IMG/VR virus record: IMGVR_UViG_3300032295_001004
Span: 3,068 to 67,067 of that record
Strand: one strand, 5' to 3'
Length of the DNA: 64,000 nucleotides
From: a virus
Taxonomy: Duplodnaviria; Caudoviricetes
The notes under the pieces were generated by a model. It made no database searches. It saw only the letters and a list, made by a program, of their open reading frames with translations, and was not told the origin of the DNA. The translations under genes and the position numbers were made by a program. Positions 6,704-23,822 of this stretch are shown piece after piece; position 1 is the stretch's first letter, and each line of letters begins with the position of its first letter.

Positions 6704-6726
6704 AAGGCCCTTCGGGGCCTTTTTTT
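6702..6726 (+). terminator. Intrinsic terminator
   Basis: AAAAGGCCC-TTCG-GGGCCTTTT followed by a T-run. Confidence 0.88.
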
Positions 6727-6746: not shown

Positions 6747-6754
6747 TATAAATA
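6747..6754 (+). promoter_or_regulatory. T4-type late promoter
   Basis: Exact TATAAATA 17 nt before the ATG of 6772 and directly after a terminator. Confidence 0.65.
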
Positions 6755-6771
6755 GGTTAGAGGATTACATA

Positions 6772-7395
6772 ATGTATCACCATCTACTAGGACGCCTACC
6801 ATTAGACACAATTAATTTTTTTAAAACTGAAATTGTAAAACGAAGACTTACTGCAAATCCGTATGAATGGATTATGTTTGATGATTTTCTAAATTTAGAG
6901 TTTTTGAAAATTTTTGAAAATACAGAATTAAAGGTTCAATGGAATAACTCTCTTAAGATTCCAAGACCTGTTCAAAAAGCATTTTACAGCGCACCAGGTC
7001 ACGGGTTTAGAATACACAAAGACGGAACACATTGTAAAAGTGCATTGAATATTGCAATCTCTTGCAATGTCAATGATTGGGTAAGATGGTATGACGAAGA
7101 TTTTATCAACAATTTAAAACAGGATACCGAGTATTCAGTTAACACACATGGTGGAACTTCAAGAGATCTTAATATTAAAGAATACGAGAATATTCCTTGT
7201 ATAAAAGAGGTGCATAATAAAATAGGCGATGTATATGTAGTAGACACAGACACATGGCATTCGTTTAAATGTAACGGTCCAGAACCAAGAATTGTTATTC
7301 AAACCAAGTTTGAAGGATTTCCTAACTTAGATACAATTAAAGAATCTTTAATAAAAAAGAGCTTTTCGAACCTTATACCAATTAACGAGACATAA
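6772..7395 (+). CDS. Putative 2OG-Fe(II) oxygenase-like protein
   Basis: RIHKD ... TWHSF ... RIVIQ. Confidence 0.55.
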   Translation: MYHHLLGRLPLDTINFFKTEIVKRRLTANPYEWIMFDDFLNLEFLKIFENTELKVQWNNSLKIPRPVQKAFYSAPGHGFRIHKDGTHCKSALNIAISCNVNDWVRWYDEDFINNLKQDTEYSVNTHGGTSRDLNIKEYENIPCIKEVHNKIGDVYVVDTDTWHSFKCNGPEPRIVIQTKFEGFPNLDTIKESLIKKSFSNLIPINET

Positions 7396-8594
7396 TGTTT
7401 TTTATAGAAGATAAAAATTTTACTAAATTTGGATATTACCAAATAGGCAATATCAAAACTCTAAGCAAGTACGAAGCATGGACTTTTTCAAAAGAAGATC
7501 CTGCACAAATAAAATTTATTTTTAACGACGAGATAATGGATCAACAGGATTGGGCTACAGAACCAATTGAAGATATTTACGAGTTATACAGACAGAGAGC
7601 ACAGCAACTAAGAAACGATTACGATTATCTTGTTTTAATGTACAGTGGTGGCATAGACAGCACAACTATCTTTGAAACATTTCTTAATAATGGAATAAAG
7701 TTAGACGAAGTATGTTCGTTCTCTAACGCAGATGTAGACGACAAAGATAATAAATTCAATCAAGAAATCTTTAATAGAGCTATACCTGTAATAAACGGAA
7801 TTGAGCTAGGCAAATTAGGTACTAAATTTCGATATGTAGAAATAGGCAAACTAGTTGTTGACCAATGGGCTGATGAATTTCATTATGAAAACTTTCATCA
7901 TTACTCCAATGGACCACAATGGTGGGTAACAAGATCTCATAAGTTTAAAGAGAGTATAGAAGACCATATGAAACTAACAGAACAAGGTAAAAAAGTTTGT
8001 TACATATGGGGATATGATAAACCGCATCTTGTTATAGAAGATGGAAAGTTTGGTATTAAGTTTATTGATGCAGCCGTTGATATTGGCGCAAGACAATTTA
8101 CCAATCATTCCCTGTTAAAAGAAAAGTTTTTAAATTTTTATGACGAGCCATTTTACATAAGCAAAGACTTTCCTAAGATATCTATTAAGCAAGGTCATAT
8201 GCTTATTAAGCTGTTAGCAACTATTCCTCTAACAGACAGTAGAATAGTATCTAGAGATCAATTGCCTGCAACCGGTCCTTTTGTCATGGTACCTAATACT
8301 GATAACAAATATCTAACTAAGAAAACTGTAGACGGTTGTATATATCCAAGAGCACTACTACATTTATTCGGTGACGATAAAGTTAGAGGTAGCATTGTTT
8401 TTTCAGCGAAAGACAAATGGTTCACACAATCAAATCACGAAAACAGATTCTTATGGGACCAAAAAATGCGAGAAATTGTTACTAAACATAGAAACTATTT
8501 CACATATTTTAAATCAAAAGAATTTGGTTTGGTACCAAGAGTACAACAAGCATTTAGAAGTAAGACACATTTTATAAAAAGTATCAATCAATGA
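7395..8594 (+). CDS. PP-loop (N-type ATP pyrophosphatase, asparagine synthase C-domain-like) protein
   Basis: LVLMYSGGIDS PP-loop; no N-terminal Cys glutaminase domain. Confidence 0.65.
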   Translation: MFFIEDKNFTKFGYYQIGNIKTLSKYEAWTFSKEDPAQIKFIFNDEIMDQQDWATEPIEDIYELYRQRAQQLRNDYDYLVLMYSGGIDSTTIFETFLNNGIKLDEVCSFSNADVDDKDNKFNQEIFNRAIPVINGIELGKLGTKFRYVEIGKLVVDQWADEFHYENFHHYSNGPQWWVTRSHKFKESIEDHMKLTEQGKKVCYIWGYDKPHLVIEDGKFGIKFIDAAVDIGARQFTNHSLLKEKFLNFYDEPFYISKDFPKISIKQGHMLIKLLATIPLTDSRIVSRDQLPATGPFVMVPNTDNKYLTKKTVDGCIYPRALLHLFGDDKVRGSIVFSAKDKWFTQSNHENRFLWDQKMREIVTKHRNYFTYFKSKEFGLVPRVQQAFRSKTHFIKSINQ

Positions 8595-9457
8595 TTAAAA
8601 AATTTATGTTATTGTTGTTGCTGTTAATCAGCACCAGCATTTATTCACAACCAATTACTATTATTGTACCATTTTCAGCTGGGGGTGCCTTTGATAAGGT
8701 TGCTAGAGAGTACGGTAATTATATCGAAGAAGAATTAAAAACCACGGTTAATATTGTTAATGTAGCCGGAGCAGGCGGCTGGCTAGGTGTTCTAAAATTA
8801 GAACAAAGTGGACCTAGAACAATAATGCTAACCAGTAGTTCATTTTATATTCATCTAAACGAGAAACAAGTTCCCCTAAGTAACTATAAATTTGTTTCAG
8901 TTATTGCAGATAGTCCTATGTATTTGATAGTAAGCAATAATAAAATAACATGCGAAGCAATAAGAAATCAAAACAGTCCAATATTTTTTGGGACTTCTGG
9001 GAGAGATAGTGTAACATCTATGCCCATTTACTTTATATCTAAAAAATACAAAAATGCTGTAGATGTTCCGTATAAAGGGCAAGCTCAAGCAATGGTAGAT
9101 TTACTAGGAGATCGTTTAACAGGAATAATGATTTCAGGGTTATCGTCTAATAGATCCGGGTTGCCAGTAATCGCATCTACATCGGATAAGACAGAAAACG
9201 GTATACCAACATTTAAAGATTGTTTAGGGATTAATAAAACTCTACATACTCAGTTCTTAGTTGCGGCTAACTTGTCTGCTGATACAGAGTTTGTAAAACA
9301 ACTGAATAGTATTGCTGATAAATTTACCAAGGATTCAATTACTAAAGAATTTTTTAAAGTATCTGGTATGAGATCTAGAAGCGGAGATTTAGCCTATACT
9401 GAAAAATTAGTTAGAGACGAATATAATAATTGGAAATCTCTGTTAGTTGAATATTAA
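8591..9457 (+). CDS. Bug/TctC-family (tripartite tricarboxylate transporter) solute-binding protein
   Basis: Signal peptide; ITIIVPFSAGGAFDKVAR, NVAGAGG, VPYKGQAQAMVDLLG. Confidence 0.8.
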   Translation: MIKKFMLLLLLLISTSIYSQPITIIVPFSAGGAFDKVAREYGNYIEEELKTTVNIVNVAGAGGWLGVLKLEQSGPRTIMLTSSSFYIHLNEKQVPLSNYKFVSVIADSPMYLIVSNNKITCEAIRNQNSPIFFGTSGRDSVTSMPIYFISKKYKNAVDVPYKGQAQAMVDLLGDRLTGIMISGLSSNRSGLPVIASTSDKTENGIPTFKDCLGINKTLHTQFLVAANLSADTEFVKQLNSIADKFTKDSITKEFFKVSGMRSRSGDLAYTEKLVRDEYNNWKSLLVEY

Positions 9458-10966
9458 TTACTCTTTTTTCAAATTAAACACTGGATGTATAGGTTTGATA
9501 TTCCAAGATGCTGAATCTGTATATCCAGGATCTTGTGTGCTTTTTAAAAGTGATACATATCTCGAGGTCCTTAACTTGTTAATTCCTCTATTAAAGGCAG
9601 CTACATCTCCAGCAGACCAGCTAACAGATTTTAACTGTAGTTCTTCTTTAGTATAATCTTGTAATATGCAAGGAACCTCGAATACATCTATATGCCTCCA
9701 CATAGTTGTTTTCTTTGACATAACTCGATTGTGATATTCTTTTGCAAGCTCTTTGCATTTATCTACATCCATTATATCACTTACCCATCGAATCATGCTT
9801 GATTCGGCATTTTGAATCTCGTGATATCTATAATATCCTTTAGACATTAACGGATCTTTATCGTTTGATTTATATAGAGATAGAGGATTCATGGCAGCAG
9901 CAAATACCGCAGGACTATCTTCTAACCATCGGCATTGTTCTTCTAAGTCTTTAACGGTGTCATACGGCAAACCTACTATGAAATTAAGATTTAAAATAAC
10001 ATCCTCACCCCAATAGCTATACAGCTTTTCGATAAGGTCCTTGGCTTGCATACCTAAACCTTTACCTACTGTTAGGCCAGCTTGCTTGTTTAATGTTTCA
10101 ATACCAAACTTAGCTCCTAGTATACCGCAATTTTTATAGATTTCCATCATCTCCGGATGCTTTTTAAATAATTCCACACGCATGTATCCAGAGAATTCAA
10201 ACTTAAATGGTAACTTGTTTACTACTCTTTCTAGAAGTAGAGCTTTGTCTAAGCTGTCGTTGATTGTATCGTCAGACAGTACATATCTTGTGGTGCCAAA
10301 TTTTTCATAATTATCCATGAATATGGAATACATTACATCTTCAGACTTAGTAAGATCACCAAACTTTTTTCCTATTAAATCGTACTGACAATATCCGCAT
10401 TTAAAAACACATCCACGACCAAACTCTACAGCAAGAGCCTCTCCAGGTGTAATCATATCATCTTTGGTATATATTAAACCTGTCGAGTTGTTATAAATGT
10501 CATACTTGTAAGTTTTGTCTGATATGTATTTTGTGCCGTTAACTTCTTCTTCTATAATTAACGGGGTATTAAACAATACATGAGAGATAATAACAGGCAC
10601 AGTACTTTCCGCTTGTCCGATAACTCCATAATCGAATCCAGGAAACCGGTTTCCTTTTATAACATAAGAACCGCCTATAATAGATACTGCATCAGGTGCG
10701 TTCTTTTTACACCTAGCTAATAGACTAGATATTTTCGGTTGAGACCAATCTAATAGAGTATTAGATACACATATAAATTTTGTGTTGTTAGATACAAATT
10801 TTTGTATACTAGACTCAAGTATATCTTCTGATAGGTTAAAAGTTTTATCTATAACAGTAACAGTTAGACCTATCTCTCGAAAAACTGATGCTACAGTATA
10901 TGCACCGGTTGGCTTAGGGCCAATTTTAGTTTCAGTATACCCACAAAATATTACAACATCTGACAT
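9458..10966 (-). CDS. Cobalamin-binding (class B-type) radical SAM enzyme
   Basis: N-terminal B12-binding-like domain; EFGRGCVFKCGYC, SDDT, GIETLN, FIVGLPYDT. Confidence 0.8.
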   Translation of the reverse strand: MSDVVIFCGYTETKIGPKPTGAYTVASVFREIGLTVTVIDKTFNLSEDILESSIQKFVSNNTKFICVSNTLLDWSQPKISSLLARCKKNAPDAVSIIGGSYVIKGNRFPGFDYGVIGQAESTVPVIISHVLFNTPLIIEEEVNGTKYISDKTYKYDIYNNSTGLIYTKDDMITPGEALAVEFGRGCVFKCGYCQYDLIGKKFGDLTKSEDVMYSIFMDNYEKFGTTRYVLSDDTINDSLDKALLLERVVNKLPFKFEFSGYMRVELFKKHPEMMEIYKNCGILGAKFGIETLNKQAGLTVGKGLGMQAKDLIEKLYSYWGEDVILNLNFIVGLPYDTVKDLEEQCRWLEDSPAVFAAAMNPLSLYKSNDKDPLMSKGYYRYHEIQNAESSMIRWVSDIMDVDKCKELAKEYHNRVMSKKTTMWRHIDVFEVPCILQDYTKEELQLKSVSWSAGDVAAFNRGINKLRTSRYVSLLKSTQDPGYTDSASWNIKPIHPVFNLKKE

Positions 10967-10969
10967 GAC

Positions 10970-11008
10970 AATATTTATTGAGTGCTTGTACTAGGCTCAA
11001 TAAATATT
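10970..11008. promoter_or_regulatory. Back-to-back late-type promoters forming a perfect 13-bp inverted repeat
   Basis: AATATTTATTGAG-N13-CTCAATAAATATT; each arm carries ATAAATA pointing at a flanking start codon (10966 minus, 11012 plus). Confidence 0.65.
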
Positions 11009-11011
11009 TTA

Positions 11012-12265
11012 ATGAGAATCGCTATATTCGGGACCAACGCAGCTTCAGACTGCCTTATAAAATTATTGCTCAAGGACCCGACAGTTACTAAAGTAATTCA
11101 TTTTGGTGCCAATTCAAGTACAGTCGGTAGCGATCGTTATGAGTTGTTAAGAGAGTATGAACTAGATCCTGCAATAAGAAAAGAAAACTTGTTAGCTAAA
11201 ATTAGAGAATTAGATGTAGATTTAATTATACCTATGAATTTACATTTTCAAACTTGGCCTGAATTTCAAATGGCTATACGGTCAAAGAATATTCCTGTGC
11301 TAGGTCCAAGATATAATGCAGCATTCTTAGAATGGTCAAAGGTAATTTCAAAAAACTTGTTTAATTATATAGGAATACCTAGTCCGAAATATGTTATATA
11401 CCCAGCTGACGAACTTCAAAAAGATTTCTTAGACATCGAGAGACCCTTTGTTTTAAAATACGATCGTGATTATCGAGCAGGATTTGAGACTATTATAGTA
11501 ACAGACGACAATGTAGATCAGGAATATGCAGAATTTAAAACAAATGGTAAGACTAGATATCTCAAAATGATGGGAGACTTTGTTGATCAGAAAATGATTA
11601 TCGAAGATTATATACCTAGCGGAAGAGAATATTCATATCATGCATTATGTAACAATACAGGGTTTACCTACATAGGATCTGCAAGAGATTATAAAAAGCT
11701 AGAAGAAGGCGATATTGGTCCAAATACAGCGGGAGTAGGATCTTATGCACCTGCTACGGATGTTGACCAAGTTGTACATACCTATGTTCAAAAGCTATTA
11801 GATCATTTTAAACAACGAAATAACGAGTATATTGGATTTTTATATTTGGGGATTATCGTAGATCAAACCGGTATTCCATTGGTGTTAGAAATTAATACAA
11901 GACCCGGAGATCCTGAATTACAATGTTTACTCCCTTTAATAAAAAATAACATTGCAAATTTGTTGTATACCACTGCTAGCGACCAACAATTACCTGTTAT
12001 TGATTTTAGTGATAAATTCTCAGTCTCAGTTAGAATCTTTAACAAAAATTATAAACTGAATACAAAACAGGAAAGAGAACCGGAATTAGGGACTATCCCT
12101 AATAATATTTCAATTAGTTATAATTCAGATAGAGAACTATTATACGCTGTACTAACAGCTGAAGCAGATAGTATTGAAGAAGCTAGTAACATTATCTATA
12201 ATTTTTTAAAAGACAAAGACTTAGGTGATTATACTTATAGAAAAGACATAGGAAAGTTACTTTAA
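11012..12265 (+). CDS. purD: PurD (GAR synthetase)-like ATP-grasp ligase, divergent
   Basis: LEWSK, IEDY..GREYS, DYKKLEEGDIGPNTAGVGSYAP, LEINTRPGDPE match PurD. The N-terminal GGREHA and GLAAGKG motifs are not conserved. Confidence 0.7.
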   Translation: MRIAIFGTNAASDCLIKLLLKDPTVTKVIHFGANSSTVGSDRYELLREYELDPAIRKENLLAKIRELDVDLIIPMNLHFQTWPEFQMAIRSKNIPVLGPRYNAAFLEWSKVISKNLFNYIGIPSPKYVIYPADELQKDFLDIERPFVLKYDRDYRAGFETIIVTDDNVDQEYAEFKTNGKTRYLKMMGDFVDQKMIIEDYIPSGREYSYHALCNNTGFTYIGSARDYKKLEEGDIGPNTAGVGSYAPATDVDQVVHTYVQKLLDHFKQRNNEYIGFLYLGIIVDQTGIPLVLEINTRPGDPELQCLLPLIKNNIANLLYTTASDQQLPVIDFSDKFSVSVRIFNKNYKLNTKQEREPELGTIPNNISISYNSDRELLYAVLTAEADSIEEASNIIYNFLKDKDLGDYTYRKDIGKLL

Positions 12266-13732
12266 AATATTAGTCTTATATTGATTAATGATATTTCTCC
12301 ATCTGTCTTTACAATCAGGAAATGCTGCAAAGTCTTTACCCAGAGCCGGACTCCAACTTAAAATTTCTTTGTGACTGTACCCTAGATTAACCCACTTAAC
12401 ATACTCTTGGGCGTGTAGATGTTTCTTAGCTGCGGCCGCTGCATCTTTATGATGTTTAGCAATCTTTATTACCTCCTCTCTAGTAAGATCCGAGAAAGCA
12501 TTATACCATCCTCTGTCGTTATCTAATTCAATATAACCAAACTTTGTAGGATTGTCTTCGATATCCGATCTCCAAACTTTAGATTTTGAAAAATCTAAAC
12601 CTAGATAATTTATGTTTACAGTATGGAACGGCGATGTATTATTATAGGTTAAAGGCAACCATTCTTCTAACTTATCACGGGTATCATAGGGTAATCCTAC
12701 AATGAGACCTGCTGATAATAAAGTATCCGGCCATAGCTCCCGTAATTTATGTGCGAACTCTAACTTAGATTCAGGATCACCACCTTTTTTAATAAAGGAG
12801 GCAGCTTTATGATTCAAACTCTCTATGCCAAAGAACGCCCCTCGAATTCCTAATGCCTTTAACAACTCAATCTGTTCAGGATGAGATTGCACTAGATCTA
12901 GTCGAATGTACCCTGCAAATCTTAATTTAAAAGATAACTTCCTAACAACATTTTCGTACAATAATTCTAATTTTTCTGTATAGTCATTAAATGTGTCGTC
13001 TGAAAAATGGTAAGTAGTAACACCATATTGTGCATAATTATATTCGAGCTCTTCTCTTAGAATATCTAAATTTCTAAGATAGTCTTTTTTGTTTTTTCCG
13101 TTAAGTGGGTACGCACAAAAACTGCACTTAAAAATACATCCTCTAGCTATTTCAATTGGAAGGCCTGCGCCCCAATGCACATAGTCTTCCGGTGTAAATT
13201 CGCTTCTTGAATTATAAAAATCAAAAGAAGCCGCAGTTTTATCACTTGTTACTCGAACTTCCCCCGCTGACCTATTGTATTGTATAGAAGATAATTTGTT
13301 ATTAAGCGATTTAGTCAACTCAACTACTGTTGTATCTGCATACCCCTCAACATATATGTCAACTCCAGGTACTGTTTTGTATGCCCTAGAACCGCCGTAG
13401 ACAATTTTTAATTTAGGATAATCAGATTTTAATTTTGCCCACACTTCTGCAGATCCTAATAATCTGTCAAGAAAATAATTTGTCTTTGGATCTTCTAAAA
13501 ATGTCGAACTAATCCCTACCCACAATGTTTCTTTTGAAACATATTTGTCAAATACTTTTTGAAAATATTCAGGATCAGAACTTAATTGAGCTGTATAATC
13601 TAATACCTTGACTGTATATCCGTGGTTCCGTAATTCTGTAGCAATCCTATAAGCACCAATTGCCCTTATTGCGCCTATCCTTAAATTAAGATCTCTAGAT
13701 CCTGTCCCGGTAAAAATAATAACTTGGTACAT
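12257..13732 (-). CDS. Cobalamin-binding (class B-type) radical SAM enzyme, paralog of 9458-10966
   Basis: GAYRIATELRNHGYTVKVLD, EIARGCIFKCSFC, SDDT, GIESLN, LIVGLPYDT. Confidence 0.8.
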   Translation of the reverse strand: MYQVIIFTGTGSRDLNLRIGAIRAIGAYRIATELRNHGYTVKVLDYTAQLSSDPEYFQKVFDKYVSKETLWVGISSTFLEDPKTNYFLDRLLGSAEVWAKLKSDYPKLKIVYGGSRAYKTVPGVDIYVEGYADTTVVELTKSLNNKLSSIQYNRSAGEVRVTSDKTAASFDFYNSRSEFTPEDYVHWGAGLPIEIARGCIFKCSFCAYPLNGKNKKDYLRNLDILREELEYNYAQYGVTTYHFSDDTFNDYTEKLELLYENVVRKLSFKLRFAGYIRLDLVQSHPEQIELLKALGIRGAFFGIESLNHKAASFIKKGGDPESKLEFAHKLRELWPDTLLSAGLIVGLPYDTRDKLEEWLPLTYNNTSPFHTVNINYLGLDFSKSKVWRSDIEDNPTKFGYIELDNDRGWYNAFSDLTREEVIKIAKHHKDAAAAAKKHLHAQEYVKWVNLGYSHKEILSWSPALGKDFAAFPDCKDRWRNIINQYKTNILK

Positions 13733-13738
13733 AGTGAA

Positions 13739-13770
13739 TATTTATTAGGCATTATAATGAACTATAAATA
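13739..13770. promoter_or_regulatory. Divergent late-type promoter motifs
   Basis: ATAAATA on the minus strand at 13739-13745 before the 13732 start; TATAAATA on the plus strand at 13763-13770 (implies the true start may be ATG 13796). Confidence 0.55.
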
Positions 13771-15750: not shown

Positions 15751-16673
15751 TGATTAATCAAGCACTGTTCAACGAGGCACATAGTCTCGACACAATACAC
15801 GGAAATCATAAGATATTTGTTTCTTGGATGTTAGGCAATCAATGCACATACAAATGTAGCTACTGCAACGATGCATATAACGGAGGAAACCATAAATTTC
15901 CTAGTAAAGAAAAAATACTTGAAGTTTTTAATACATTTAATACACCTATTAAGGTCATGTTCTTAGGCGGGGAACCGACATATCATCCCGACTTTGAAGA
16001 AATAGTTTTAGGAAAACCTAACCATGTTACTATTCAATTAATTAGTAACGGGTCAAGGCCATTAGCTTTCTGGGAAAGAATATCACAACACCTAGATCTT
16101 ATCATACTTACATATCATATAGAATATGCAAAATTAGAAAGATTTAAAGAAATAGCATCTGCTTGTAAAAATAAATTAAGTCGTATAAACTTGCCGATGT
16201 TACCATCTAGATGGGACGAGTGTATGGAAGTATTTGTTAGTTTGACTGAGGCGGGCTTCAAAGTATCACCTAAGGTACTATTAGAAGACTTTGGTTATAC
16301 AGCAAACAAATACCTACAAGGTTATAACAAAGAGCAATTAGCTTGGATCAATTCCAATCAAGATGCCGCTGTACATACTATGAAAATGATTGCTCCTAGT
16401 GGAAAATCGTTTAAGCAAACAAATCCTTCAGAGTTACTGGCACAGAAACTTACTAATTTTAAAGGATGGGAGTGTGAGTCTCCTAAATGGAATGTAAGCA
16501 TTTTATCTGATGGTAGAGTATTTGATACTGCATGTAAACAAAGAAAACAATTAGGAACTATCGAAAGCGGGTTTAATCTAAATAGAAGTCCAGTTATATG
16601 CGAACAAAACTTTTGTTGGTGTTATAGTGATTTACATACTAAAAAAACAAGAGTACTAAATGATAACACATGA
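15750..16673 (+). CDS. Radical SAM enzyme with C-terminal twitch/SPASM-like Cys cluster
   Basis: CTYKCSYC, GGEPT, ISNG; C-terminal GWEC...DG.VFDTAC...ICEQNFCWC. Confidence 0.8.
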   Translation: MINQALFNEAHSLDTIHGNHKIFVSWMLGNQCTYKCSYCNDAYNGGNHKFPSKEKILEVFNTFNTPIKVMFLGGEPTYHPDFEEIVLGKPNHVTIQLISNGSRPLAFWERISQHLDLIILTYHIEYAKLERFKEIASACKNKLSRINLPMLPSRWDECMEVFVSLTEAGFKVSPKVLLEDFGYTANKYLQGYNKEQLAWINSNQDAAVHTMKMIAPSGKSFKQTNPSELLAQKLTNFKGWECESPKWNVSILSDGRVFDTACKQRKQLGTIESGFNLNRSPVICEQNFCWCYSDLHTKKTRVLNDNT

Positions 16674-17418
16674 AGATCTAGAAAAATTAGGTTCCGGATC
16701 TACAATACCTGATATTTTAATTACATCATTGATCGCAAATTCAAACTCGAAGATTAAAAATTTTTACGAGTTTGGTACTTGGGTAGGAGGATTTATTATA
16801 CTAGTTAATAGTCTAACTAATGATTTAAAATTCTATGCGTCGGAGACAATGGAGCATTTTAAATTTCAAGAACTAAAAAATACAAAACCTTTAGTTAATT
16901 GGGAAGAAATTATCGACCTAGAGTCTTTAGATGTGTATATCAAGAAAACATCTATAGATTATTGCCATAAAGAAATAAACTTAGATATGTTTATTAGCAA
17001 TGATAGTATGTTAAATAGTATTAAAGTTCCTTTAGATTTCATACACTTTGATTGTATGATTGACGGAGACAAAGTATATAACACAGCAAAAAATTTAATA
17101 GAAAACCATATGTCTGATCACGGAATATTTTGTGTAGACGACTTTATGCCAATTTGCGGTTTTAGAACTATAGCTATTTCAAAGCTAGTTACTGAAAACA
17201 AATTATTTCCTTTGTATCTTGGCCATAACAAAATGTTCTTTTGTAAAAGCCACGAAGCGCAATGGCAAGCTGCCAAAATGCTCTTAGCCTATGTTAAGAC
17301 CGCAGATTGTAAAAACAAGTTTTCTACATTATATAGCAGTCAAAATTTTCGACCATTAGAATTAAGTTTCAATGGAACTCGACATACACATTTCAGATAC
17401 GATCCAAGATGGAAATAA
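16660..17418 (+). CDS. Putative class I SAM-dependent methyltransferase
   Basis: YEFGTWVGG, DFIHFD, FCVDD motifs (Methyltransf_24-like). Confidence 0.55.
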   Translation: MITHEDLEKLGSGSTIPDILITSLIANSNSKIKNFYEFGTWVGGFIILVNSLTNDLKFYASETMEHFKFQELKNTKPLVNWEEIIDLESLDVYIKKTSIDYCHKEINLDMFISNDSMLNSIKVPLDFIHFDCMIDGDKVYNTAKNLIENHMSDHGIFCVDDFMPICGFRTIAISKLVTENKLFPLYLGHNKMFFCKSHEAQWQAAKMLLAYVKTADCKNKFSTLYSSQNFRPLELSFNGTRHTHFRYDPRWK

Positions 17419-17421
17419 ATT

Positions 17422-17979
17422 ATGCATAATTATAAAAGATTATTATCTGCACCTAAGACTACTGAAAAGTTAGTTACAATTGACATACAAAAACTAGCAA
17501 ATGAAATTTCTAAATACAATCTTGGAATACATTCCAAAGACGAGAAGTATATGAAATTTAGCCCGTTAGTCGATTTAAGATCGTTTATAATTAAAGAAGT
17601 TAACTGGGATTTTAAATGTAGCGGAGATTATACTAATGAATTACCAGAATTTGTTGCTATTGTAATGGATATCTTTAAATGTGATAAAGAATGGATTGAC
17701 AAGAAATTACAAAGAGCATACTATACTGAATTAAACCCAGGTAAAGTTGTAAAGCCTCATCATGATGGTAATCATAGATATTTTGATAAAGTTGACAGAT
17801 TTCATATCTACTTGTCAGAAGAAGATGCACAGATTGATCTTTACTGCAATAGTCAACGATTAGATTATAAACTAGGAGAGGTATGGAGATTTGACCTAGG
17901 GAAAGAACACTGGGCAAAAAATAACTCAACTAAACCTTTAAAAATGTTTGTATTTGATTTACTGAGAGATGATGAATGA
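17422..17979 (+). CDS. Aspartyl/asparaginyl beta-hydroxylase-like 2OG oxygenase
   Basis: LNPGKVVKPHHD...RFHIYL...EVWRFD..KEHWAKN...FVFD. Confidence 0.65.
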   Translation: MHNYKRLLSAPKTTEKLVTIDIQKLANEISKYNLGIHSKDEKYMKFSPLVDLRSFIIKEVNWDFKCSGDYTNELPEFVAIVMDIFKCDKEWIDKKLQRAYYTELNPGKVVKPHHDGNHRYFDKVDRFHIYLSEEDAQIDLYCNSQRLDYKLGEVWRFDLGKEHWAKNNSTKPLKMFVFDLLRDDE

Positions 17980-18530
17980 AATATGTTTACAAATTAAATT
18001 TGCCGCCTTTAGAAGAAGTTTTTTTAGATTCTGCATTTAGAATGTTTTTCTCAGAAATTCCAAAATATAGATTTATTTCTTATAAGTATTTTAAACCAGC
18101 AGACTTGTTTAAAGAAGAATTTTTAAATATCAACGGCAACGAATTTGATCTATCGACTGTTTATATAAAAAAAGACAGGGCTGGCGAAATACATGCTGAT
18201 ACTGGAAAAGATGCAAGTGTTAAGACATGGGGTATTAATTGGGTACACGGCGGCACCGGAATGTTAGAATATTGGGATTTCCTGCCTGAAGAAAAAAAGA
18301 TACAGCCTACTCAGACCAGTGGTTTGTTATATCAAATATACGACATCGATACTCCGGCTACTCATAGTTACGATATGGAACCAGGTTGTGCATATTTGGT
18401 AAATGCAGCAATACCTCATAGAGCGTCCGGTGTAGGAAATCGATTTGCAGTAACTCTGCGATCAACTAAAATGTTTCATTTAAGTTGGGAAGAAGTAGTA
18501 GGACAAATGAAAAATTTAATTAAGGAATAA
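17976..18530 (+). CDS. Putative 2OG-Fe(II) oxygenase-like protein
   Basis: EIHAD ... IPHRA ... RFAVTLR. Confidence 0.55.
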   Translation: MKYVYKLNLPPLEEVFLDSAFRMFFSEIPKYRFISYKYFKPADLFKEEFLNINGNEFDLSTVYIKKDRAGEIHADTGKDASVKTWGINWVHGGTGMLEYWDFLPEEKKIQPTQTSGLLYQIYDIDTPATHSYDMEPGCAYLVNAAIPHRASGVGNRFAVTLRSTKMFHLSWEEVVGQMKNLIKE

Positions 18531-18534
18531 AAGT

Positions 18535-19848
18535 ATGTTTTGTAAAACTGTTTGGCATGGTCTTTATATTTTACCGTACGGTGATGTAAGATTGTGTTCT
18601 ATTGCAACTAATTCTAAAAAAGAATTAGACAATAATGCCGCAAGAGATAAAGATGGAAATTTAATGAATATACTTACGCATAGTATTAAAGAAATTATGA
18701 ATTCCGATAAGCATTGTCAGGTCAGGGCATTAAATCAAAAAGATCCTAAAGCATGGAGTCCTCATTGTGATTGTTGCGAAGTTAGAGAACGAGTTACAAA
18801 CCACGAAAGAACACATAAAAATAAAAGTCGTAGAATTTATTTGAACGAGTTAATTCCAACAGAGGATACTGCCACTGAAGAAAATTATATAGGTAAAGCA
18901 ACAGAGGATGGAAAGATTGATTGGTATCCTGCTAGTTTAGATATCCGATTTGGAAACTTATGTAATCAAAAATGCATTATGTGTTCTCCAGAGTTTAGTA
19001 ACCTATGGTACGACGACTGGCACGAGTGGACCGGTGGGTTGAAGCAATTCCACAATGGAAGGCCTGTGACCTTAATTAAAAACGAACATAACAAATGGGT
19101 TGCACCTGATCAACTTCAATGGCACGAAGATCCAAGGTGGTGGCCAAAGTTTGAAGAAATGGCACCCCATCTAAAGCACATATATGTAACTGGCGGCGAA
19201 CCAATGGTTGTACCTGCTCACGATATTATGCTAGATAAACTAATAGAATGGGGACATGCTGAACATATTGTTATAGAATATGATACAAATGCCACAGTTG
19301 TAAATGACAAACTAGCAGAACGATGGAAACACTTTAAGATGGTTGACATACGAGTTAGTATGGATTCAACTAAAGACCAGTACGAAATAATTAGGTCTGG
19401 TGGCAAGTGGGAAAAGTTTGTAAAGAATGTAGAGAAATTAAAGCAGTACGAAAAAGAAAGTAACAAGCAGATTCGTGTATCTGCACTGACTACTTGTTTT
19501 CAGATGACTACAGCTCACACTATATTAAAAACTGAGGAATGGTGTAAATCTATAGGTGTTAATTTCCATATTAGATTCTTAGAAGGTCCTCCTCATCACA
19601 GAGTATTACATCTTCCTGTAGCGGCAAGAGACGAGCTACTAAAGATCTATAGCGAGTCTGATTCAGAGAAGGCAAAGATGATTATAAAGTTCTTAATTGA
19701 CAATAGAAATTCTACAGTTAGCAATCCAGAACATGTACATACATTTGTAAAGTTTATGAACTTCTTAGACGAAAGAAGAGGAACAGACTGGAAACCAGTT
19801 TTTCCTCAGTTAACTGATATGTTAACAAGACACGGATTTATGCCTTAA
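18535..19848 (+). CDS. Radical SAM enzyme with N-terminal SPASM-like Cys domain
   Basis: FCKTVW...GDVRLC...CDCC; LDIRFGNLCNQKCIMC; TGGEP. Confidence 0.8.
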   Translation: MFCKTVWHGLYILPYGDVRLCSIATNSKKELDNNAARDKDGNLMNILTHSIKEIMNSDKHCQVRALNQKDPKAWSPHCDCCEVRERVTNHERTHKNKSRRIYLNELIPTEDTATEENYIGKATEDGKIDWYPASLDIRFGNLCNQKCIMCSPEFSNLWYDDWHEWTGGLKQFHNGRPVTLIKNEHNKWVAPDQLQWHEDPRWWPKFEEMAPHLKHIYVTGGEPMVVPAHDIMLDKLIEWGHAEHIVIEYDTNATVVNDKLAERWKHFKMVDIRVSMDSTKDQYEIIRSGGKWEKFVKNVEKLKQYEKESNKQIRVSALTTCFQMTTAHTILKTEEWCKSIGVNFHIRFLEGPPHHRVLHLPVAARDELLKIYSESDSEKAKMIIKFLIDNRNSTVSNPEHVHTFVKFMNFLDERRGTDWKPVFPQLTDMLTRHGFMP

Positions 19849-20425
19849 CATTTAATAGGGGAGCTATTTCTTTAAATGGTTCCCCGAATCCGTATGTGAT
19901 TAGATATCTAGGAACAGTATTAGATGCTACTACAGCATGAATTCGATGAGTATCCACTAGATAGGCCTCTCCCTCTTTCATGATATAAGTGTGGTGACGA
20001 GCACGAAATGTATCGTATCTATTATCTATACCCATCTGTGTAAGAGATCCTGAGCTATTCTTAACACCTACATTAATACAACACATTCTTCCATCTTCAT
20101 CACGATGAGGAACAATGTCGCCTAGTGTCTTAATAAAATGGACTCGCTCTCGTTTCAATTTTAATTCAGGTTTAAATATTTCAGCAAACCTTTCTAGTAC
20201 AAGAGTAACCATGTCTCTTAGAACAGGGTGTTTGTCAGTGTGTCTAGTAAAACTAATTGATCCGCCTGAGTTACCTTCATTCCTATATTCCATCCAGCAA
20301 GGGTAGCTAGGAACTTCCATCTCTGCTCCGTACTTATGGACAACAATTTCCAATTCCTCAGATGCTTCGATAAACTTATTAAACTCAGCGGGCTCTATTA
20401 TTCGACCTAATGGTAATACTGACAT
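19838..20425 (-). CDS. Putative 2OG-Fe(II) oxygenase-like protein
   Basis: IVPHRD ... RIHAV ... RYLITY. Confidence 0.6.
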   Translation of the reverse strand: MSVLPLGRIIEPAEFNKFIEASEELEIVVHKYGAEMEVPSYPCWMEYRNEGNSGGSISFTRHTDKHPVLRDMVTLVLERFAEIFKPELKLKRERVHFIKTLGDIVPHRDEDGRMCCINVGVKNSSGSLTQMGIDNRYDTFRARHHTYIMKEGEAYLVDTHRIHAVVASNTVPRYLITYGFGEPFKEIAPLLNVKA

Positions 20426-20433
20426 ACGATTCC

Positions 20434-21228
20434 TTATTTTAAAAATGGTTTAAAGATATTACAAGGATCCCATTCCCACCATTTTCCGCTGACTGCTTTT
20501 CCAAAATCAAAACTTTTAGGATCATAATGATGATTGTTGTGCCATCCTTGACCCCATGCTGTGTATCCTAGAATTAGATTATTCTGACTTTGATCAGGTG
20601 TATCGAAATTACGATAACCTATAAGTCCTTTATAGTGACCGTATACATTAACTAAGTTATCTTGGGTAACTCCTATCATAGATACTAAACAACATACACC
20701 TAGTGCGAATTGCCAGTTGAATAAAGCAATTAGTAAGGGAACACCCCACAGTACTTTTAAATGATGATTGTGGAACCAAACATGGTTTGGTTTTCTTAAT
20801 AAGTCTACTGAATATTTGATGTTAACAGGGTTAGTGGTTTCTGTAATTTTATATTGCCAGCCCACAAATGCAGTTAGTTTATTGTAGGCTGCTGGACTAT
20901 GTAAGTCTGTTAATGTATCTGAATGAGGATGATGATATCCTCGGTGCAATGCTACCCAAAATATACTTGCACCCTGGCCCGATAATGCACCAAAAAATAA
21001 TAAAACATTTTCTTTCCATGTAGGCAGTTTATGAGTCCTATGACTAAAAACTCTATGGTATCCTACTGCAACACCTAACCCACATACCAGTACCCACAAG
21101 ATAAATGCAAACCATAGGTAATACAAAGGAATTACGCCAATTGCATAACATACAACTGCCGTAGTCCCTAATATCATAGCCGGTACAAATTGAAACCAAA
21201 ATGATTTACTAATTGTTTGCAACTTCAT
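20434..21228 (-). CDS. Membrane-bound fatty acid desaturase (delta-9/DesC-like)
   Basis: Three His boxes HRVFSH, HRGYHH, HNNHH plus hydrophobic segments. Confidence 0.88.
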   Translation of the reverse strand: MKLQTISKSFWFQFVPAMILGTTAVVCYAIGVIPLYYLWFAFILWVLVCGLGVAVGYHRVFSHRTHKLPTWKENVLLFFGALSGQGASIFWVALHRGYHHPHSDTLTDLHSPAAYNKLTAFVGWQYKITETTNPVNIKYSVDLLRKPNHVWFHNHHLKVLWGVPLLIALFNWQFALGVCCLVSMIGVTQDNLVNVYGHYKGLIGYRNFDTPDQSQNNLILGYTAWGQGWHNNHHYDPKSFDFGKAVSGKWWEWDPCNIFKPFLK

Positions 21229-21863
21229 ATGTTCCCACCAATAGGCAATGTTGTTCGATATTCCTGCTTTAGAAAGCTACATCTAATAACAGTATCTGCA
21301 GGCAATAAGGTTCTTTTAAACAATACTTCCCAATATTTTGCAAAGAAACATTTTGTTTGTTTAGGAATTATCATTTCGTCAAAGTATCCGTATCTATCAT
21401 TATTGTAATCACTGTATGTAAATTTTCGAAGTAACCTTGCGTGTTTTTTATTAACTAAGGTAAAGAACTTTAGTCTACCATTTGCTTCGTTATACTCAAT
21501 ACACTTATCTAACAACGCTTTTAATGTATTATTATCTCCGTCGCTTCTATAAAGTGTGCAATACCAAGACGGTTCTTCTTGACTTTCGTAAAATGTTGCA
21601 AAGGCAGTGACCTGACCTTCTTCGTTTATGTTTCCAAAAGCATGAAAAGTTTTTAAATCTTTAAGGTATGTGCTACAGAATGCACCATATAATTTTTCAT
21701 TAAAATCTATTTCTTCAACTTGTTGTCTATATTCCGGCTCTAATTTTTCATCTACATTTTTATAATAGTCCGCTGCATCATCTACACCCATGTATTTTCG
21801 TGTACTGTAGAATAAATTTTTAACTGCCTCTCGATGAGACCTATCCAATTTTACAATGTTCAT
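21225..21863 (-). CDS. Hypothetical protein, possible GNAT-fold acyltransferase
   Basis: beta-rich core (FGNINEEGQVTAFATFY), then LKALLDKCIEYNEANG; 4-nt overlaps on both sides. Confidence 0.4.
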   Translation of the reverse strand: MNIVKLDRSHREAVKNLFYSTRKYMGVDDAADYYKNVDEKLEPEYRQQVEEIDFNEKLYGAFCSTYLKDLKTFHAFGNINEEGQVTAFATFYESQEEPSWYCTLYRSDGDNNTLKALLDKCIEYNEANGRLKFFTLVNKKHARLLRKFTYSDYNNDRYGYFDEMIIPKQTKCFFAKYWEVLFKRTLLPADTVIRCSFLKQEYRTTLPIGGNI

Positions 21864-22771
21864 AAACTGTTATCTTCCATTAATTTAGAAATAGGAATAC
21901 CATCTAAACTAGGTTCAAGGCGCCTAACCAACGGTAACCCTAATTGTACAAACGCTTCCGCATTGAATGCCAGCAGTTTTTCAAATCCGTGAGTTTTCTT
22001 TTTAAATCTTATATCAGGATATAGCTGTCGTAAAATTCTATTCTTACTAGACACTGATGCCAGTTTATAATTGTACCTAGTGTGTATTAATTCTTGTATT
22101 TCAAAATCTTCTAAGTAATACATCATCATTTCTGGGGTATAACTAAACCATTCATTAACTAAAGGTATCTTAAACTTTTCGCTAAAACGCATTGCACTGG
22201 CGTCTTCATTTTCTCGGAAACAATGATACCACCAGCTATCTGTAGGTGTAACCTGCCTTCTTAGAAATTGTTCTCCGCCCATTACAGCAGGTAATCCTAA
22301 TTTCTTTATTTGATTATATACCATAAGATATGTAATTTGACTACAATCAATCTCTTTGGCAAATTCAGCAGCTTCACCTGACCAGAAAAAGTCTTCAACA
22401 TCAAAATCTATAATTTCTAATTGTAAGTCTAGTTCTTTAGCAATAGCAATTGCTTCTTCTACATCTGGCAAATTGTAGTCATCTTTAAATTTAAGCATGA
22501 AGCATTTAGGCTTATGCCCAATTTCTAAAAAATTTCTAACAACAATTTCACTATCAGTGCCGCCACTGAGCAGAACAACTAGATCCTTACCATACTCAGA
22601 TAATACACAATCTGCTGTTCTTCTTAGCTCTTGGCGCCAACTACTAGTTCTATAATAATCTTTGTCAATCGTTCCTGCAAACACTTCATACTTTTCGTAT
22701 GGTGTTTCTCTATATCCAAATTTTCTTCCACCTATAGTATAGTAAAGGTGGTTATTATATGTATAGTTCAT
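21860..22771 (-). CDS. PP-loop (asparagine synthase C-domain-like) adenylating enzyme
   Basis: LVVLLSGGTDSE PP-loop, AVMGGE; paralog of 7395-8594. Confidence 0.7.
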   Translation of the reverse strand: MNYTYNNHLYYTIGGRKFGYRETPYEKYEVFAGTIDKDYYRTSSWRQELRRTADCVLSEYGKDLVVLLSGGTDSEIVVRNFLEIGHKPKCFMLKFKDDYNLPDVEEAIAIAKELDLQLEIIDFDVEDFFWSGEAAEFAKEIDCSQITYLMVYNQIKKLGLPAVMGGEQFLRRQVTPTDSWWYHCFRENEDASAMRFSEKFKIPLVNEWFSYTPEMMMYYLEDFEIQELIHTRYNYKLASVSSKNRILRQLYPDIRFKKKTHGFEKLLAFNAEAFVQLGLPLVRRLEPSLDGIPISKLMEDNSL

Positions 22772-23004
22772 TGCATTAAATCAATCAAATGTTTAACTGT
22801 AACAACAGCGGTTTTTGAATCAATAGTTTCTTTGCCGGTCACATCTTCATAATACATTTGTAATTCAACCGCATCGAGACTATCAACACCTATGTCTAGT
22901 AATCTAGTATCTTCGGTGATTAGATCCGGAACTTTACCTTTTAACTCTAGAAGTGCTTTTTTTAAAAACTCAATTTTATCTGTCTGCGTAGTTAATTCAA
23001 TCAT
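22768..23004 (-). CDS. Acyl carrier protein
   Basis: 78 aa acidic protein with LLDIGVDSLDAVEL (GxDSL phosphopantetheine site) and TVKHLID. Confidence 0.85.
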   Translation of the reverse strand: MIELTTQTDKIEFLKKALLELKGKVPDLITEDTRLLDIGVDSLDAVELQMYYEDVTGKETIDSKTAVVTVKHLIDLMQ

Positions 23005-23539
23005 TTTGTTCTCTTTTATATTCAGCTACAAACTGTACAGAATTATTTACTACCTTAGTACCTATGGGTTTAAATTTCTTGTAATCAGCTGGCCACTGAT
23101 TAAACATACCTGCGGGTTTGTTATTTGAAAGATTTACAAGTGCATCGTATATCGGTTTATTATAATGATTGCAAGTTATCCAGATAGAGTTGTATGCTTT
23201 CGATTCTTCAATAATCTTTGGAAGAATATATTTTGCCATATTGTATGATGTTCTAAACTTCAACGGAATATAAGCTCGAACCAGAGCCAATACTGTATTG
23301 TCATCTAACCTGTTCCATCCTGCACTACCTGCATACTCTCCAGTTTCAGTTTGCATAACAAAATAGTTTCCTATTTCAAACCTACCATGTTCTAGTAGAT
23401 AAAACAGATTAGCATGATCATCTTTAAAATATGGATGATAGTTTATAGCAAGATCGTGTTCGGGAAGATCCTCTAATCCTTGCTGTAATAATTTAACAAT
23501 CGGATTATTACTTAAATCTTTTATCGAATGGACAATCAT
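22997..23539 (-). CDS. GNAT-like acyltransferase
   Basis: YFVMQ..GEYAGSAGW...LVRAYIPLKFR (motif A-like). Confidence 0.5.
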   Translation of the reverse strand: MIVHSIKDLSNNPIVKLLQQGLEDLPEHDLAINYHPYFKDDHANLFYLLEHGRFEIGNYFVMQTETGEYAGSAGWNRLDDNTVLALVRAYIPLKFRTSYNMAKYILPKIIEESKAYNSIWITCNHYNKPIYDALVNLSNNKPAGMFNQWPADYKKFKPIGTKVVNNSVQFVAEYKREQND

Positions 23540-23545
23540 ATTAGA

Positions 23546-23592
23546 TATTTAATTCATAAATAGTTGACACAGATGCTAAGTGATACTATACT
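23546..23592. promoter_or_regulatory. Divergent control region: minus-strand TAAATA for the ACP operon; plus-strand ATAAATA and sigma70 promoter for the tRNA-like RNA
   Basis: TATTTA at 23546-23551; ATAAATA at 23556-23562; TTGACA(23564)-N17-TATACT(23587). Confidence 0.7.
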
Positions 23593-23598
23593 AGTTAT

Positions 23599-23708: not shown

Positions 23709-23739
23709 GATTTATATATAAGTAAAAACAACAACAATT

Positions 23740-23822
23740 GCCCTGGTGGTGAAATTGGTAGACACGCTGGTCTTAGAAGCCAGTGCGAGAGCGTGACGGT
23801 TCGAGTCCGTCCTAGGGCACCA
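23740..23822 (+). tRNA. tRNA-Leu(UAG)
   Basis: GCCCTGG/CTAGGGC acceptor, CTGGT-CT-TAG-AA-GCCAG, variable arm, TTCGAGT, CCA. Confidence 0.93.

Follow-up and report, generated by a model that had tools for sequence, protein, structure and literature searches.

Phage auxiliary genes are usually single enzymes from the primary metabolism of the host. Among multi-enzyme systems, thienamycin and carbapenem clusters combine an AsnB-family synthetase with several class-B radical S-adenosylmethionine (SAM) enzymes, Fe/2-oxoglutarate-type oxygenases and a GNAT protein, and in aminolipid and lipid A tailoring an OlsB-type N-acyltransferase uses donors borne on an acyl carrier protein (ACP), while OlsC and LpxO are acyl hydroxylases of the AspH family. 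The terminal-alkyne systems JamABC and TtuABC and the polyyne clusters cay and pgn place a small dedicated ACP beside an ATP-using activating enzyme and membrane di-iron desaturases (PMC9828172, PMC8406139). For phages, the closest description is that of the hypervariable host recognition cluster of T4-like cyano- and pelagimyophages, which is positional and defines neither a function nor a core cassette (PMC7029224). Radical-SAM cassettes lie within such hypervariable islands, and T4-like marine genomes can carry up to 12 radical SAM genes as well as Fe-S assembly genes, no function being given for either (PMC7029224, PMC5332604). Here we analyze an island of 19 genes, named g01 to g19, in a stretch of 64,000 nt of an uncultured virus of the Caudoviricetes (IMG/VR record IMGVR_UViG_3300032295_001004, positions 3,068 to 67,067 of that record; the whole stretch is called the window below). 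Like the systems named above, the island contains an ACP next to an ATP-using enzyme, a membrane desaturase, a GNAT-fold protein, AspH-type oxygenases and class-B-type radical SAM enzymes.

An earlier note on this DNA had described 19 contiguous genes, mostly for tailoring and ligating enzymes, and this description was borne out, the open reading frames (ORFs) lying back to back at exactly 6772-23539 of the window, with intergenic gaps of at most 68 nt and many overlapping stop and start codons. The genes form six transcription units, i.e. g01-g03 (plus strand), g04 (minus), g05 (plus), g06 (minus), g07-g13 (plus) and g19-g14 (minus). We propose, at a probability of roughly 45%, that they make up a modular phage biosynthetic island, in which a carrier-protein pathway leads to a desaturated, hydroxylated, C-methylated and amide-linked acyl compound.

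The core operon and its conservation

The rightmost unit, g19 to g14 on the minus strand, is the core operon of the island. Its second gene, g18 (22768..23004), encodes an ACP that matches PF00550 (22.7 bits; cut-off 20.8) and the NCBIfam ACP models, and its DSLD phosphopantetheine-serine motif was invariant across five homologs. The neighboring g17 (21860..22771) encodes a stand-alone PP-loop synthetase of the AsnB/beta-lactam-synthetase type. Its Pfam score for Asn_synthase (19.4 bits) fell under the cut-off of 21; g17 was assigned by fold, using an AlphaFold model built from a natural homolog (AF2 pLDDT 89.6). Compared with AsnB-family synthetase domains, this model gave Z scores of 15.4 to 11.9 over 236-262 residues; among single enzymes, the values were 15.4 for asparagine synthetase (ASNS), 14.6 for beta-lactam synthetase, 13.9 for the carbapenam synthetase CarA and 10.7 for LarE, and the AsnB and beta-lactam synthetases ranked well above QueC, MnmA, TilS and other PP-loop enzymes. 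The PP-loop SGGTDS was invariant. The model alignment begins only at ASNS residue 75-119, and the N-terminal nucleophile (Ntn) glutaminase domain of about 200 residues is missing from the protein. The AsnB-family synthetase on which the earlier note had based an analogy with thienamycin thus has a structural counterpart in g17. A tblastn search with g17 against GenBank phage records gave no match.

The next gene, g16 (21225..21863), encodes a GNAT-fold acyltransferase. A Pfam search with all 58 members of its family returned nothing, and the assignment follows from the AlphaFold model of a natural homolog (AF2 pLDDT 92.7), which matched GNATs with a Foldseek E-value of 7e-7 and a Z score of 14.1 (155 of 164 residues aligned; root-mean-square deviation 2.9). 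Two GNAT-like proteins had been claimed earlier; g16 is one of them, while for g19 (22997..23539), the first gene of the operon, GNAT is a weak lead only, the best PDB profile match being 2jlm with an E-value of 0.23. A profile comparison of g19 with g16 reached no significance, nor did searches of PDB sequences, for which the proteins g02, g08, g12, g14, g17 and g19 and profiles of the g16 and g19 families were used. In one related locus (L100, 9237-10004), the g19 family and the ACP form a single ORF of 255 amino acids with DSLD near its C-terminus, a Rosetta-stone link between g19 and the carrier protein, and another g19 relative (P0368) has, with 258 amino acids, the length expected of such a fusion.

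The operon continues with g15 (20434..21228), encoding an SCD1-type integral-membrane di-iron desaturase (PF00487) with the His boxes HRVFSH, HRGYHH and HNNHH. It aligned to mammalian SCD1 (E-value 3e-11), has four hydrophobic segments and is the sole integral-membrane protein among the island proteins. In GenBank phages a single match was found, to Pelagibacter phage Mosig at 29% identity, and we therefore rejected the idea that g15 is the known cyanophage desaturase auxiliary metabolic gene. The last gene, g14 (19838..20425), encodes an AspH-like cupin oxygenase, with a weak match to PF05118 and links to the other cupins of the island through iterative hidden Markov models (HMMs) and hhalign.

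Co-occurrence was evaluated for 54 IMG/VR loci with at least 6 kb flanking the g17 homolog on both sides. The genes g17, g16 and g15 were adjacent in 54 of these 54 loci (100%), and the g19 family was found in 63%. Other families were rarer near g17: g02-like genes were present in 48%, B12 radical SAM genes in 33% and g13-like genes in 31% (all three counted within 10 kb of g17), g01-like genes in 28%, g09-like genes in 24%, and g05 and TctC in 6% each, while the families of g07, g10 and g12 occurred in 0%. Across 80 IMG/VR loci, an ACP ORF was detected in 32, and the commonest extra neighbors were AspH-type genes (42/80), which in those 42 loci come after the desaturase, and TauD genes (31/80). 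Relatives of the island carry two to four desaturases and a Rieske protein, with three desaturases in the loci L032, L033 and L036. Given that non-core families occur in just 0-48% of related loci, the linkage is real yet modular, and consists of a conserved core with swappable tailoring cassettes. Conserved linkage across phages, named in the earlier note as a check of its proposal, was thus observed for g17-g16-g15, but the 19 genes are not kept as a unit.

Such low co-occurrence with g17 outside g15-g19 (0-48%) is also what a hypervariable dumping ground of independent auxiliary genes might produce, in which the core acyl cassette, a module of PurD-like, PP-loop and TctC genes, and the radical-SAM/cupin cassettes would have no common product. 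The six units run in alternating directions with a promoter-like motif on each, the GC content of the island is below that of the rest of the window, and the PurD-like module is split here, g02-g03 lying 2.4 kb from g05, whereas its genes are adjacent in L024, L026, L028 and L029; moreover, radical-SAM cassettes act as insertions between otherwise similar pelagimyophages (PMC7029224). We nevertheless consider a mosaic of this kind unlikely, as identical families regroup in many independent contexts, one of them a bacterial chromosome, as a fixed core with variable tailoring sets is typical of biosynthetic cluster families, and as the late-type motif is common to all units.

In total, 765 homologs of g17 were found at 60-74% identity, on contigs of up to 379 kb. 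Among 185,579 bacterial and archaeal species genomes, a g17 relative was present in only four loci, all in metagenome-assembled genomes of Bdellovibrionales. One of these (L039; positions 7831-19717 of LNEB01000015, a 413-kb contig) contains within 12 kb an AspH gene, two B12 radical SAM genes, a g17-like gene, two desaturase genes, a g16-like GNAT gene and an ACP gene, and also an SDR gene and a split transketolase; a protein with an ADP-ribosyltransferase domain adjoins this cluster. The cassette is virus-specific, widespread and uncharacterized.

Tailoring and ligating enzymes and the proposed pathway

Two radical SAM enzymes, probably of class B with a B12 domain, are encoded by the paralogous genes g04 (9458..10966, minus strand) and g06 (12257..13732, minus strand; E-value between the two 1e-58). 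Both score above the Radical_SAM cut-off (PF04055), with the CxxxCxxC cores CVFKCGYC and CIFKCSFC. Their putative N-terminal B12-binding domains reached 27.8 and 23.8 bits for PF02310, below the cut-off of 32.1, and NCBIfam class-B models span both domains in both proteins but score far under their cut-offs; the two B12-type enzymes of the earlier note were retained, the B12 domain being probable. The two SPASM/twitch radical SAMs described there were confirmed in part: g13 (18535..19848, plus strand) is an N-terminal-twitch radical SAM (NF033640, 269 bits; cut-off 170), but for g09 (15750..16673, plus strand) only the radical SAM assignment stands, with a CxxxCxxC motif and a Cys-rich C-terminus, a SPASM/twitch domain being a weak assignment. 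Loci retrieved with the B12 radical SAM alone also contained g09-like, g13-like and g15-like genes.

The six expected oxygenase domains with an HxD...H triad are those of g01 (6772..7395, plus strand; cupin/AspH-like, H82-x-D84...H163, weak Cupin_2 match), the N-terminal half of g07 (13796..15088, plus strand; start taken from the gene call in locus L034), g08 (15085..15750, plus strand; cupin-like, H95-x-D97...H193, with an Atlas lead to DUF1826/2OG-Fe_Oxy_2), g11 (17422..17979, plus strand), g12 (17976..18530, plus strand; cupin-like, H73-x-D75...H148) and g14. Only g11, an Asp/Asn beta-hydroxylase-type cupin oxygenase of the AspH/LpxO family, passed Pfam (PF05118, 34.3 bits; cut-off 22.6). 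Iterative HMMs built on 856 ORFs of related loci connected all six domains, among them g01 with g11 and g14, and hhalign gave probabilities of 83% for g01-g14, 95% for the g07 N-terminal half with g12 and 66% for the same half with g08. The first His, the Asp and the distal His were invariant in all six family alignments; the assignment to a cupin, or double-stranded beta-helix, core comes from these sequence links. The C-terminal half of g07 is a Methyltransf_24 domain just over the Pfam cut-off. A second methyltransferase domain had been claimed as well; the candidate, g10 (16660..17418, plus strand), is a possible Methyltransf_24-like protein by a weak match (E-value 0.029) with the motif EFGTWVGG, and a BLASTP comparison with the methyltransferase half of g07 was not significant.

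Enzymes of these families are also at work in the maturation of proteusins, lasso peptides and graspetides. Accordingly, the B12 radical SAM C-methyltransferases, the other radical SAMs, the AspH-type hydroxylases, the ATP-grasp enzyme, the AsnB-like (lasso-cyclase-like) protein and the GNATs could decorate a peptide, in the manner of ribosomally synthesized and post-translationally modified peptides (RiPPs), or a structural protein of the virion. Some radical SAM matches to NCBIfam RiPP models were obtained (TIGR03975 and NF050148, both weak), PF05118 includes protein Asp/Asn hydroxylases, and the enzymes could plausibly be expressed late, along with virion proteins. With no gap longer than 68 nt, however, there is no space for a precursor gene, and neither a RiPP recognition element (RRE)/PqqD domain nor a leader peptidase or transporter was matched in Pfam (19 ORFs at E-values up to 0.01 and nine ORFs at up to 10). 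Protein modification would further leave the ACP and the membrane desaturase unexplained, and g17 is half the size of a lasso cyclase. We judge it improbable, and a RiPP cluster with its own precursor was set aside because of the short gaps and the missing RRE/PqqD and peptidase matches.

The ligating enzymes outside the core are g05 and g02. The ORF of g05 opens with GTG at 10982, but the likely start is the ATG at 11012 (11012..12265, plus strand). Its product is a PurD-derived ATP-grasp ligase, with a match to GARS_A (E-value 1.6e-26) and 159 bits for the PurD equivalog model TIGR00877, compared with a cut-off of 288. Only residues 90-347 align to PurD structures, most of which start to align at residue 88-93. 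The segment LEINTRPGDPE aligns to PurD and is kept in the family, preserving the E-x-N-x-R-x-G-D-P-E motif, whereas the motif of the PurD N-domain, GxGGREHA, is lost, the N-terminus of g05 reading GTNAASDCL. Members of its viral family share 40-50% identity. GenBank phages contained only true purD genes, at about 25% identity and mostly on contaminant-like records, and there are no other pur genes in the window. The gene g02 (7395..8594, plus strand) encodes a second PP-loop adenylating enzyme, with the motif SGGIDS, from a virus-only family: hhalign linked it to g17 over the PP-loop (90%), and its ESM Atlas neighbors were 100% viral. The two PP-loop enzymes listed in the earlier note are therefore supported by fold for g17 and by motif and profile for g02. 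In related phages, on contigs of up to 332 kb, every PurD-like gene has a g02-like PP-loop gene after it (as in L024, L026, L028 and L029), often with GNAT, cupin and TctC genes close by, and TctC adjoins the pair in L028 and L029. Here, g03 (8591..9457, plus strand) encodes a TctC/Bug-family solute-binding protein (PF03401, 46.2 bits; cut-off 27), whose hydrophobic N-terminus is a signal peptide. The Pfam matches of g03, g05, g15 and g18 agree with the Bug protein, ATP-grasp ligase, desaturase and ACP named at first reading.

PurD being the nearest relative of g05, and QueC, TilS and MnmA being PP-loop enzymes, the island might instead serve nucleotide metabolism, with g05 as a divergent PurD, or modify phage DNA or tRNA. 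In L029 and L030, replication genes surround the PurD-like pair, the island is flanked by tRNA genes, and g07 weakly matches a PHROG annotated as DNA methyltransferase. This explanation appears very improbable to us: g05 stays at 159 bits where the PurD model demands 288 and has lost the N-domain motif, other pur genes are absent, and no known hypermodification enzyme was matched in Pfam, NCBIfam or PHROGs; g17 resembles AsnB and beta-lactam synthetase well above QueC, MnmA and TilS, and the ACP, the desaturase and TctC do not fit. For these reasons g05 as a true PurD and hypermodification of DNA or tRNA were both set aside.

The proposed acyl pathway builds on the enzyme families, the folds of g16 and g17, and the order of the core genes with its conservation, all of which are established by the comparisons above. 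An acyl chain is taken as the substrate because the ACP, the membrane SCD-type desaturase and the cupins of the LpxO/OlsC family point there; the g15 family acts on lipophilic chains, which we count in favor of it. The peptide or glycan substrate that the earlier note had considered is shown by none of the results; the ACP and the only membrane enzyme indicate an acyl chain. In the pathway, a host phosphopantetheinyl transferase would prime the ACP, and an acyl or dicarboxylic group would be brought onto it either through an acyl-adenylate formed by g17 or by transacylation through g19 or g16. The membrane desaturase g15 would then add unsaturation, and an AspH/LpxO-type cupin would hydroxylate the chain. 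Since g17 lacks a glutaminase domain, it would adenylate a carboxylate and link it to an amine of the substrate, while a GNAT could hand the acyl group to an amine acceptor. Around this core, the class-B radical SAMs g04 and g06 are candidates for C-methylation of unactivated carbons, and the tailoring in this phage may be extended by another two radical SAMs, five additional cupin oxygenases and one or two methyltransferases. The PurD-derived ligase g05 might, with g02, use ATP to add an amino acid similar to glycine or to carry out another amidation, and the secreted TctC protein g03 may capture a carboxylate precursor in the periplasm. The product could be free, inserted into a membrane or attached to something.

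Several observations weigh against this pathway. A conventional loading enzyme is missing, as neither an ANL/AMP-binding ligase nor a thioesterase was matched in Pfam (19 ORFs at E-values up to 0.01, nine at up to 10), and we know of no AsnB-type enzyme that loads a carrier protein. A phosphopantetheinyl transferase was likewise not found in the 67-kb viral record, which carries little weight as the record is about 19% complete. The ACP ORF occurs in only about 40% of related loci (32/80), and with a non-core content varying between 0 and 48% the 19 genes do not have to contribute to a single product. In other phages, the PurD-like/PP-loop pair is found in replication-gene neighborhoods, and the glycosyltransferase and fiber genes adjoining the island are equally compatible with a role in glycan synthesis.

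Genomic setting, late-type motifs and selection

By similarity of its proteins, the source phage is classed as a T4-like, Kyanoviridae-like myovirus, because a glycosyltransferase of the window is about 70% identical to its counterparts in Synechococcus phages S-CAM7 and ACG-2014f, and its fiber and baseplate proteins share about 30-36% identity with those of cyanomyoviruses. In S-CAM7, no island counterpart adjoins the matching glycosyltransferase. The CheckV-type completeness estimate of 19% for 67 kb implies a genome of roughly 350 kb, and contigs with g17 homologs reach 379-524 kb, so that the source may be a jumbo phage; its nearest cultured relatives have genomes of about 216 kb. A megablast search with the entire island against 50,697 GenBank phage records gave zero matches, and matches to PHROGs were limited to g07 (weak), g09, g13, g15 and the ACP. 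The GC content is 31-36% across most of positions 8001-24000 of the window, as compared to 38-41% (up to 46%) in the structural part, which hints at an origin of the island separate from the remainder of the window.

On the left, the island is bounded by an intrinsic terminator (6702..6726, plus strand) that ends the upstream metallophosphoesterase unit; its 9-bp stem, UUCG loop and U7 tract (minimum free energy -14.4 kcal/mol, z -2.6) correspond well to the strong terminator noted before. The tRNA cluster placed on the right in the earlier note proved to be two tRNA genes, tRNA-Leu at 23740 and tRNA-Thr at 24567, and no cluster. Rfam at the gathering threshold returned two tRNAs only, and no cobalamin or SAM riboswitch. 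Upstream of the island lie an AAA_33 kinase gene (4279-4752) and the metallophosphoesterase gene (6008-6703), both of whose families also flank the related island in L028; the kinase family was seen in 19 of 80 IMG/VR loci, and both genes may share the neighborhood of the island. Among tRNA genes 4 kb off the island, an ORF of 144 amino acids (2301-2735) matches the C-terminal, GNAT-fold domain of malonyl-CoA decarboxylase (PF05292, 26 bits; cut-off 23.2) and may bear on acyl-ACP chemistry. To the right, a Methyltransf_31 ORF (23793-24533) would overlap tRNA-Leu if started at the GTG at 23793; the call of 234 amino acids in the 94%-identical locus L034 puts the start at 23829.

Directly after the island, at 23.8-32 kb, follow genes for a methyltransferase, a class II aldolase, a GT17 enzyme, two GT-B enzymes and an epimerase, and Thr-rich collagen-like fiber proteins are encoded at 55-59 kb. 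This arrangement raises the possibility that the island produces or modifies an unusual sugar with N-acyl, methyl or hydroxyl groups, which the neighboring glycosyltransferases would put on the collagen-like fibers or on a glycan of the host envelope, in a BclA/anthrose-like manner and within a hypervariable host recognition cluster of T4-like aquatic phages. The order glycosyltransferase, glycosyltransferase, methyltransferase, core cassette is retained in the relatives L032, L034 and L036, and late motifs are compatible with co-expression with structural genes. The analogous island of Pelagibacter phage Mosig, located by tail fibers, also combines radical SAM, AspH, desaturase, TauD and GNAT genes with genes for a sugar aminotransferase, a carbamoyltransferase and an epimerase, and radical-SAM cassettes belong to the hypervariable cluster in the literature (PMC7029224). 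Within 6772-23539, however, no enzyme matched a sugar-nucleotide family in Pfam or NCBIfam, and an ACP and a membrane SCD-type desaturase have no obvious role on a sugar. Moreover, the core cassette and the PurD-like pair also occur remote from fibers and glycosyltransferases, by ribonucleotide reductase and RtcB genes in L024 and by DNA polymerase in L029 and L030. We thus regard glycan or fiber decoration as rather unlikely. For virion-surface modification, put forward in the earlier note, adjacency to glycosyltransferase and fiber genes is the only basis.

In cyanomyoviruses, NATAAATA has been described as the motif of late promoters (PMC2984593). It was found 5-25 nt upstream of the start codons in five of the six units of the island, while the sixth, starting with g19, has the variant ATTAAATA (23546..23553, minus strand; 6 nt ahead of the g19 ATG); the late-type motif claimed for every unit is thus present at five units in its canonical form and at one as a variant. 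The heptamer ATAAATA is depleted about three-fold in the window (10 copies; 31 +/- 6 expected), and five of the 10 copies lie directly upstream of the starts of g01, g04, g05, g06 and g07; others precede ORFs starting at 45178 and 60552, near fiber genes. The longer form TATAAATA occurs twice in the whole window (9.3 copies expected), and nearly every motif copy is located just 5' of a gene start; the motif at 45172 overlaps the ATG of an ORF of 2241 amino acids. One copy of TATAAATA (6747..6754, plus strand) lies 17 nt ahead of the g01 ATG. The divergent control region between g04 and g05 (10964..11014) is mirror-symmetric, with a 19-nt inverted repeat in which CAATAAATA occurs twice, 5 nt away from the ATG of g04 and of g05, respectively, and that between g06 and g07 (13738..13771) has TAATAAATA on the minus strand for g06 and TATAAATA on the plus strand for g07. 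Both regions are near-palindromes that take in the two start codons. A mere 5-6 nt separate the end of the motif from the ATG in four of the six units; should these motifs be T4-type late promoters, the transcripts would have little or no leader. The motif pattern suggests late control of the island, and because all six units bear T4-type late motifs its enzymes are probably made together with the virion proteins.

Copies of g06-g19 and of the glycosylation genes, 94-95% identical, were present in two further metagenomes. Compared with such a variant (L034), every gene from g06 to g19 showed mostly synonymous change, with synonymous and nonsynonymous differences of, e.g., 103 vs 38 in g06, 33 vs 4 in g09, 67 vs 5 in g13 and 31 vs 3 in g16. 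These counts indicate that the island genes are under purifying selection. Nonsynonymous change was more frequent in g10 (30 vs 21), g11 (26 vs 14) and g12 (22 vs 14) than in their neighbors, and g10-g12 thus appear to be faster-evolving or under relaxed constraint.

Comparison with known systems

The island stands in contrast to the usual auxiliary genes of phages, being a multi-enzyme carrier-protein cassette that hundreds of large contigs of uncultured phages share at 60-74% amino-acid identity and that has hardly any counterpart among 185,579 species genomes of bacteria and archaea. No member of the cassette has been studied, and its key enzyme is absent from PHROGs and from GenBank phage records. 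It is possible, as a tentative extension of the proposed pathway, that large aquatic phages, of up to about 380-520 kb by the length of their contigs, have a natural-product pathway of their own that relies on a carrier protein, in which a virus-specific, glutaminase-less AsnB-type synthetase works with an ACP, GNATs and membrane desaturases, and here also with cobalamin-type radical SAM methylases, six cupins and a PurD-derived ligase, so as to make, late in infection, a lipid-like metabolite not seen before that is amide-linked and also unsaturated, branched and hydroxylated. Such a metabolite might act as a toxin, a signal or a lysis or membrane effector, or be a lipid attached to the virion. 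The extended pathway would be the first thiotemplated route to a secondary metabolite that is a property of viruses and not of cells. If a dedicated metabolite is indeed made, phages would run a secondary metabolism of their own. The asparagine-synthetase fold would have a new use beside an ACP, and a function would be given to the numerous radical SAM and Fe-S assembly genes of marine T4-like phages.

With AsnB/ASNS, beta-lactam synthetase, carbapenam synthetase and TsnB9, g17 shares the fold of the synthetase domain and the SGGxDS PP-loop, which together imply carboxylate adenylation followed by attack of an amine. It differs from the AsnB family in its 303 amino acids without an Ntn glutaminase domain, in the location of its gene beside an ACP gene, and in belonging to a virus-specific family. 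The island shows the same combination of enzymes as the thienamycin and carbapenem clusters, but no Pfam or NCBIfam match to a crotonase-type carboxymethylproline synthase or to CoA-trimming enzymes, and it adds the ACP and the membrane desaturase. Nothing points to a beta-lactam product; a beta-lactam pathway was set aside, since its only bases were the fold of g17 and beta-lactamase-fold neighbors in L024 and L026. The systems of aminolipid and lipid A tailoring are alike by enzyme class, with a GNAT-fold acyltransferase, an ACP-borne donor, PF05118 hydroxylases and a membrane di-iron enzyme. At the sequence level, NCBIfam scans and the Pfam search of the g16 family gave no match to the OlsB, OlsA or Lpx families.

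By position, the island resembles the hypervariable host recognition cluster that T4-like myophages of the cyano- and pelagimyophage groups carry, e.g. that of Mosig (EXVC030M, MT647606), a large non-syntenic island by fiber and glycosyltransferase genes (PMC7029224). Similar in content, the island of Mosig contains radical SAM, AspH, fatty-acid desaturase, TauD, GNAT and methyltransferase genes; in tblastn with the 19 island proteins, it was matched only by the desaturase, at 29% identity. The sole cellular counterpart found, the Bdellovibrionales cluster L039, has AspH, B12 radical SAM, g17-like, desaturase, GNAT and ACP genes as here. Its g17-like protein is about 30% identical, it adds the SDR gene and the split transketolase, and it is devoid of the PurD-like ligase, TctC, g13 and g09.

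The likeness to JamABC/TtuABC and to the cay and pgn polyyne clusters (PMC9828172, PMC8406139) lies in the small dedicated ACP beside an ATP-using activating enzyme and in the membrane di-iron desaturases. It is strengthened by the relatives of the island that have three desaturases and a Rieske protein, L032, L033 and L036 matching the desaturase triad of the polyyne clusters. The activating enzyme is an ANL fatty acyl-AMP ligase in those systems and an AsnB/beta-lactam-synthetase-type PP-loop protein here. Polyyne clusters also include a release thioesterase, whereas no thioesterase or hydrolase family was matched in the island, although the fold of g19 lacks an assignment. As its activating enzyme is of the AsnB type and no thioesterase was seen, we place the island outside the JamABC/polyyne group, as a variant. 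With one desaturase, the variant further adds GNATs, AspH-type cupins, class-B radical SAMs and a PurD-like ligase to the shared acyl cassette, and its carriers are phages.

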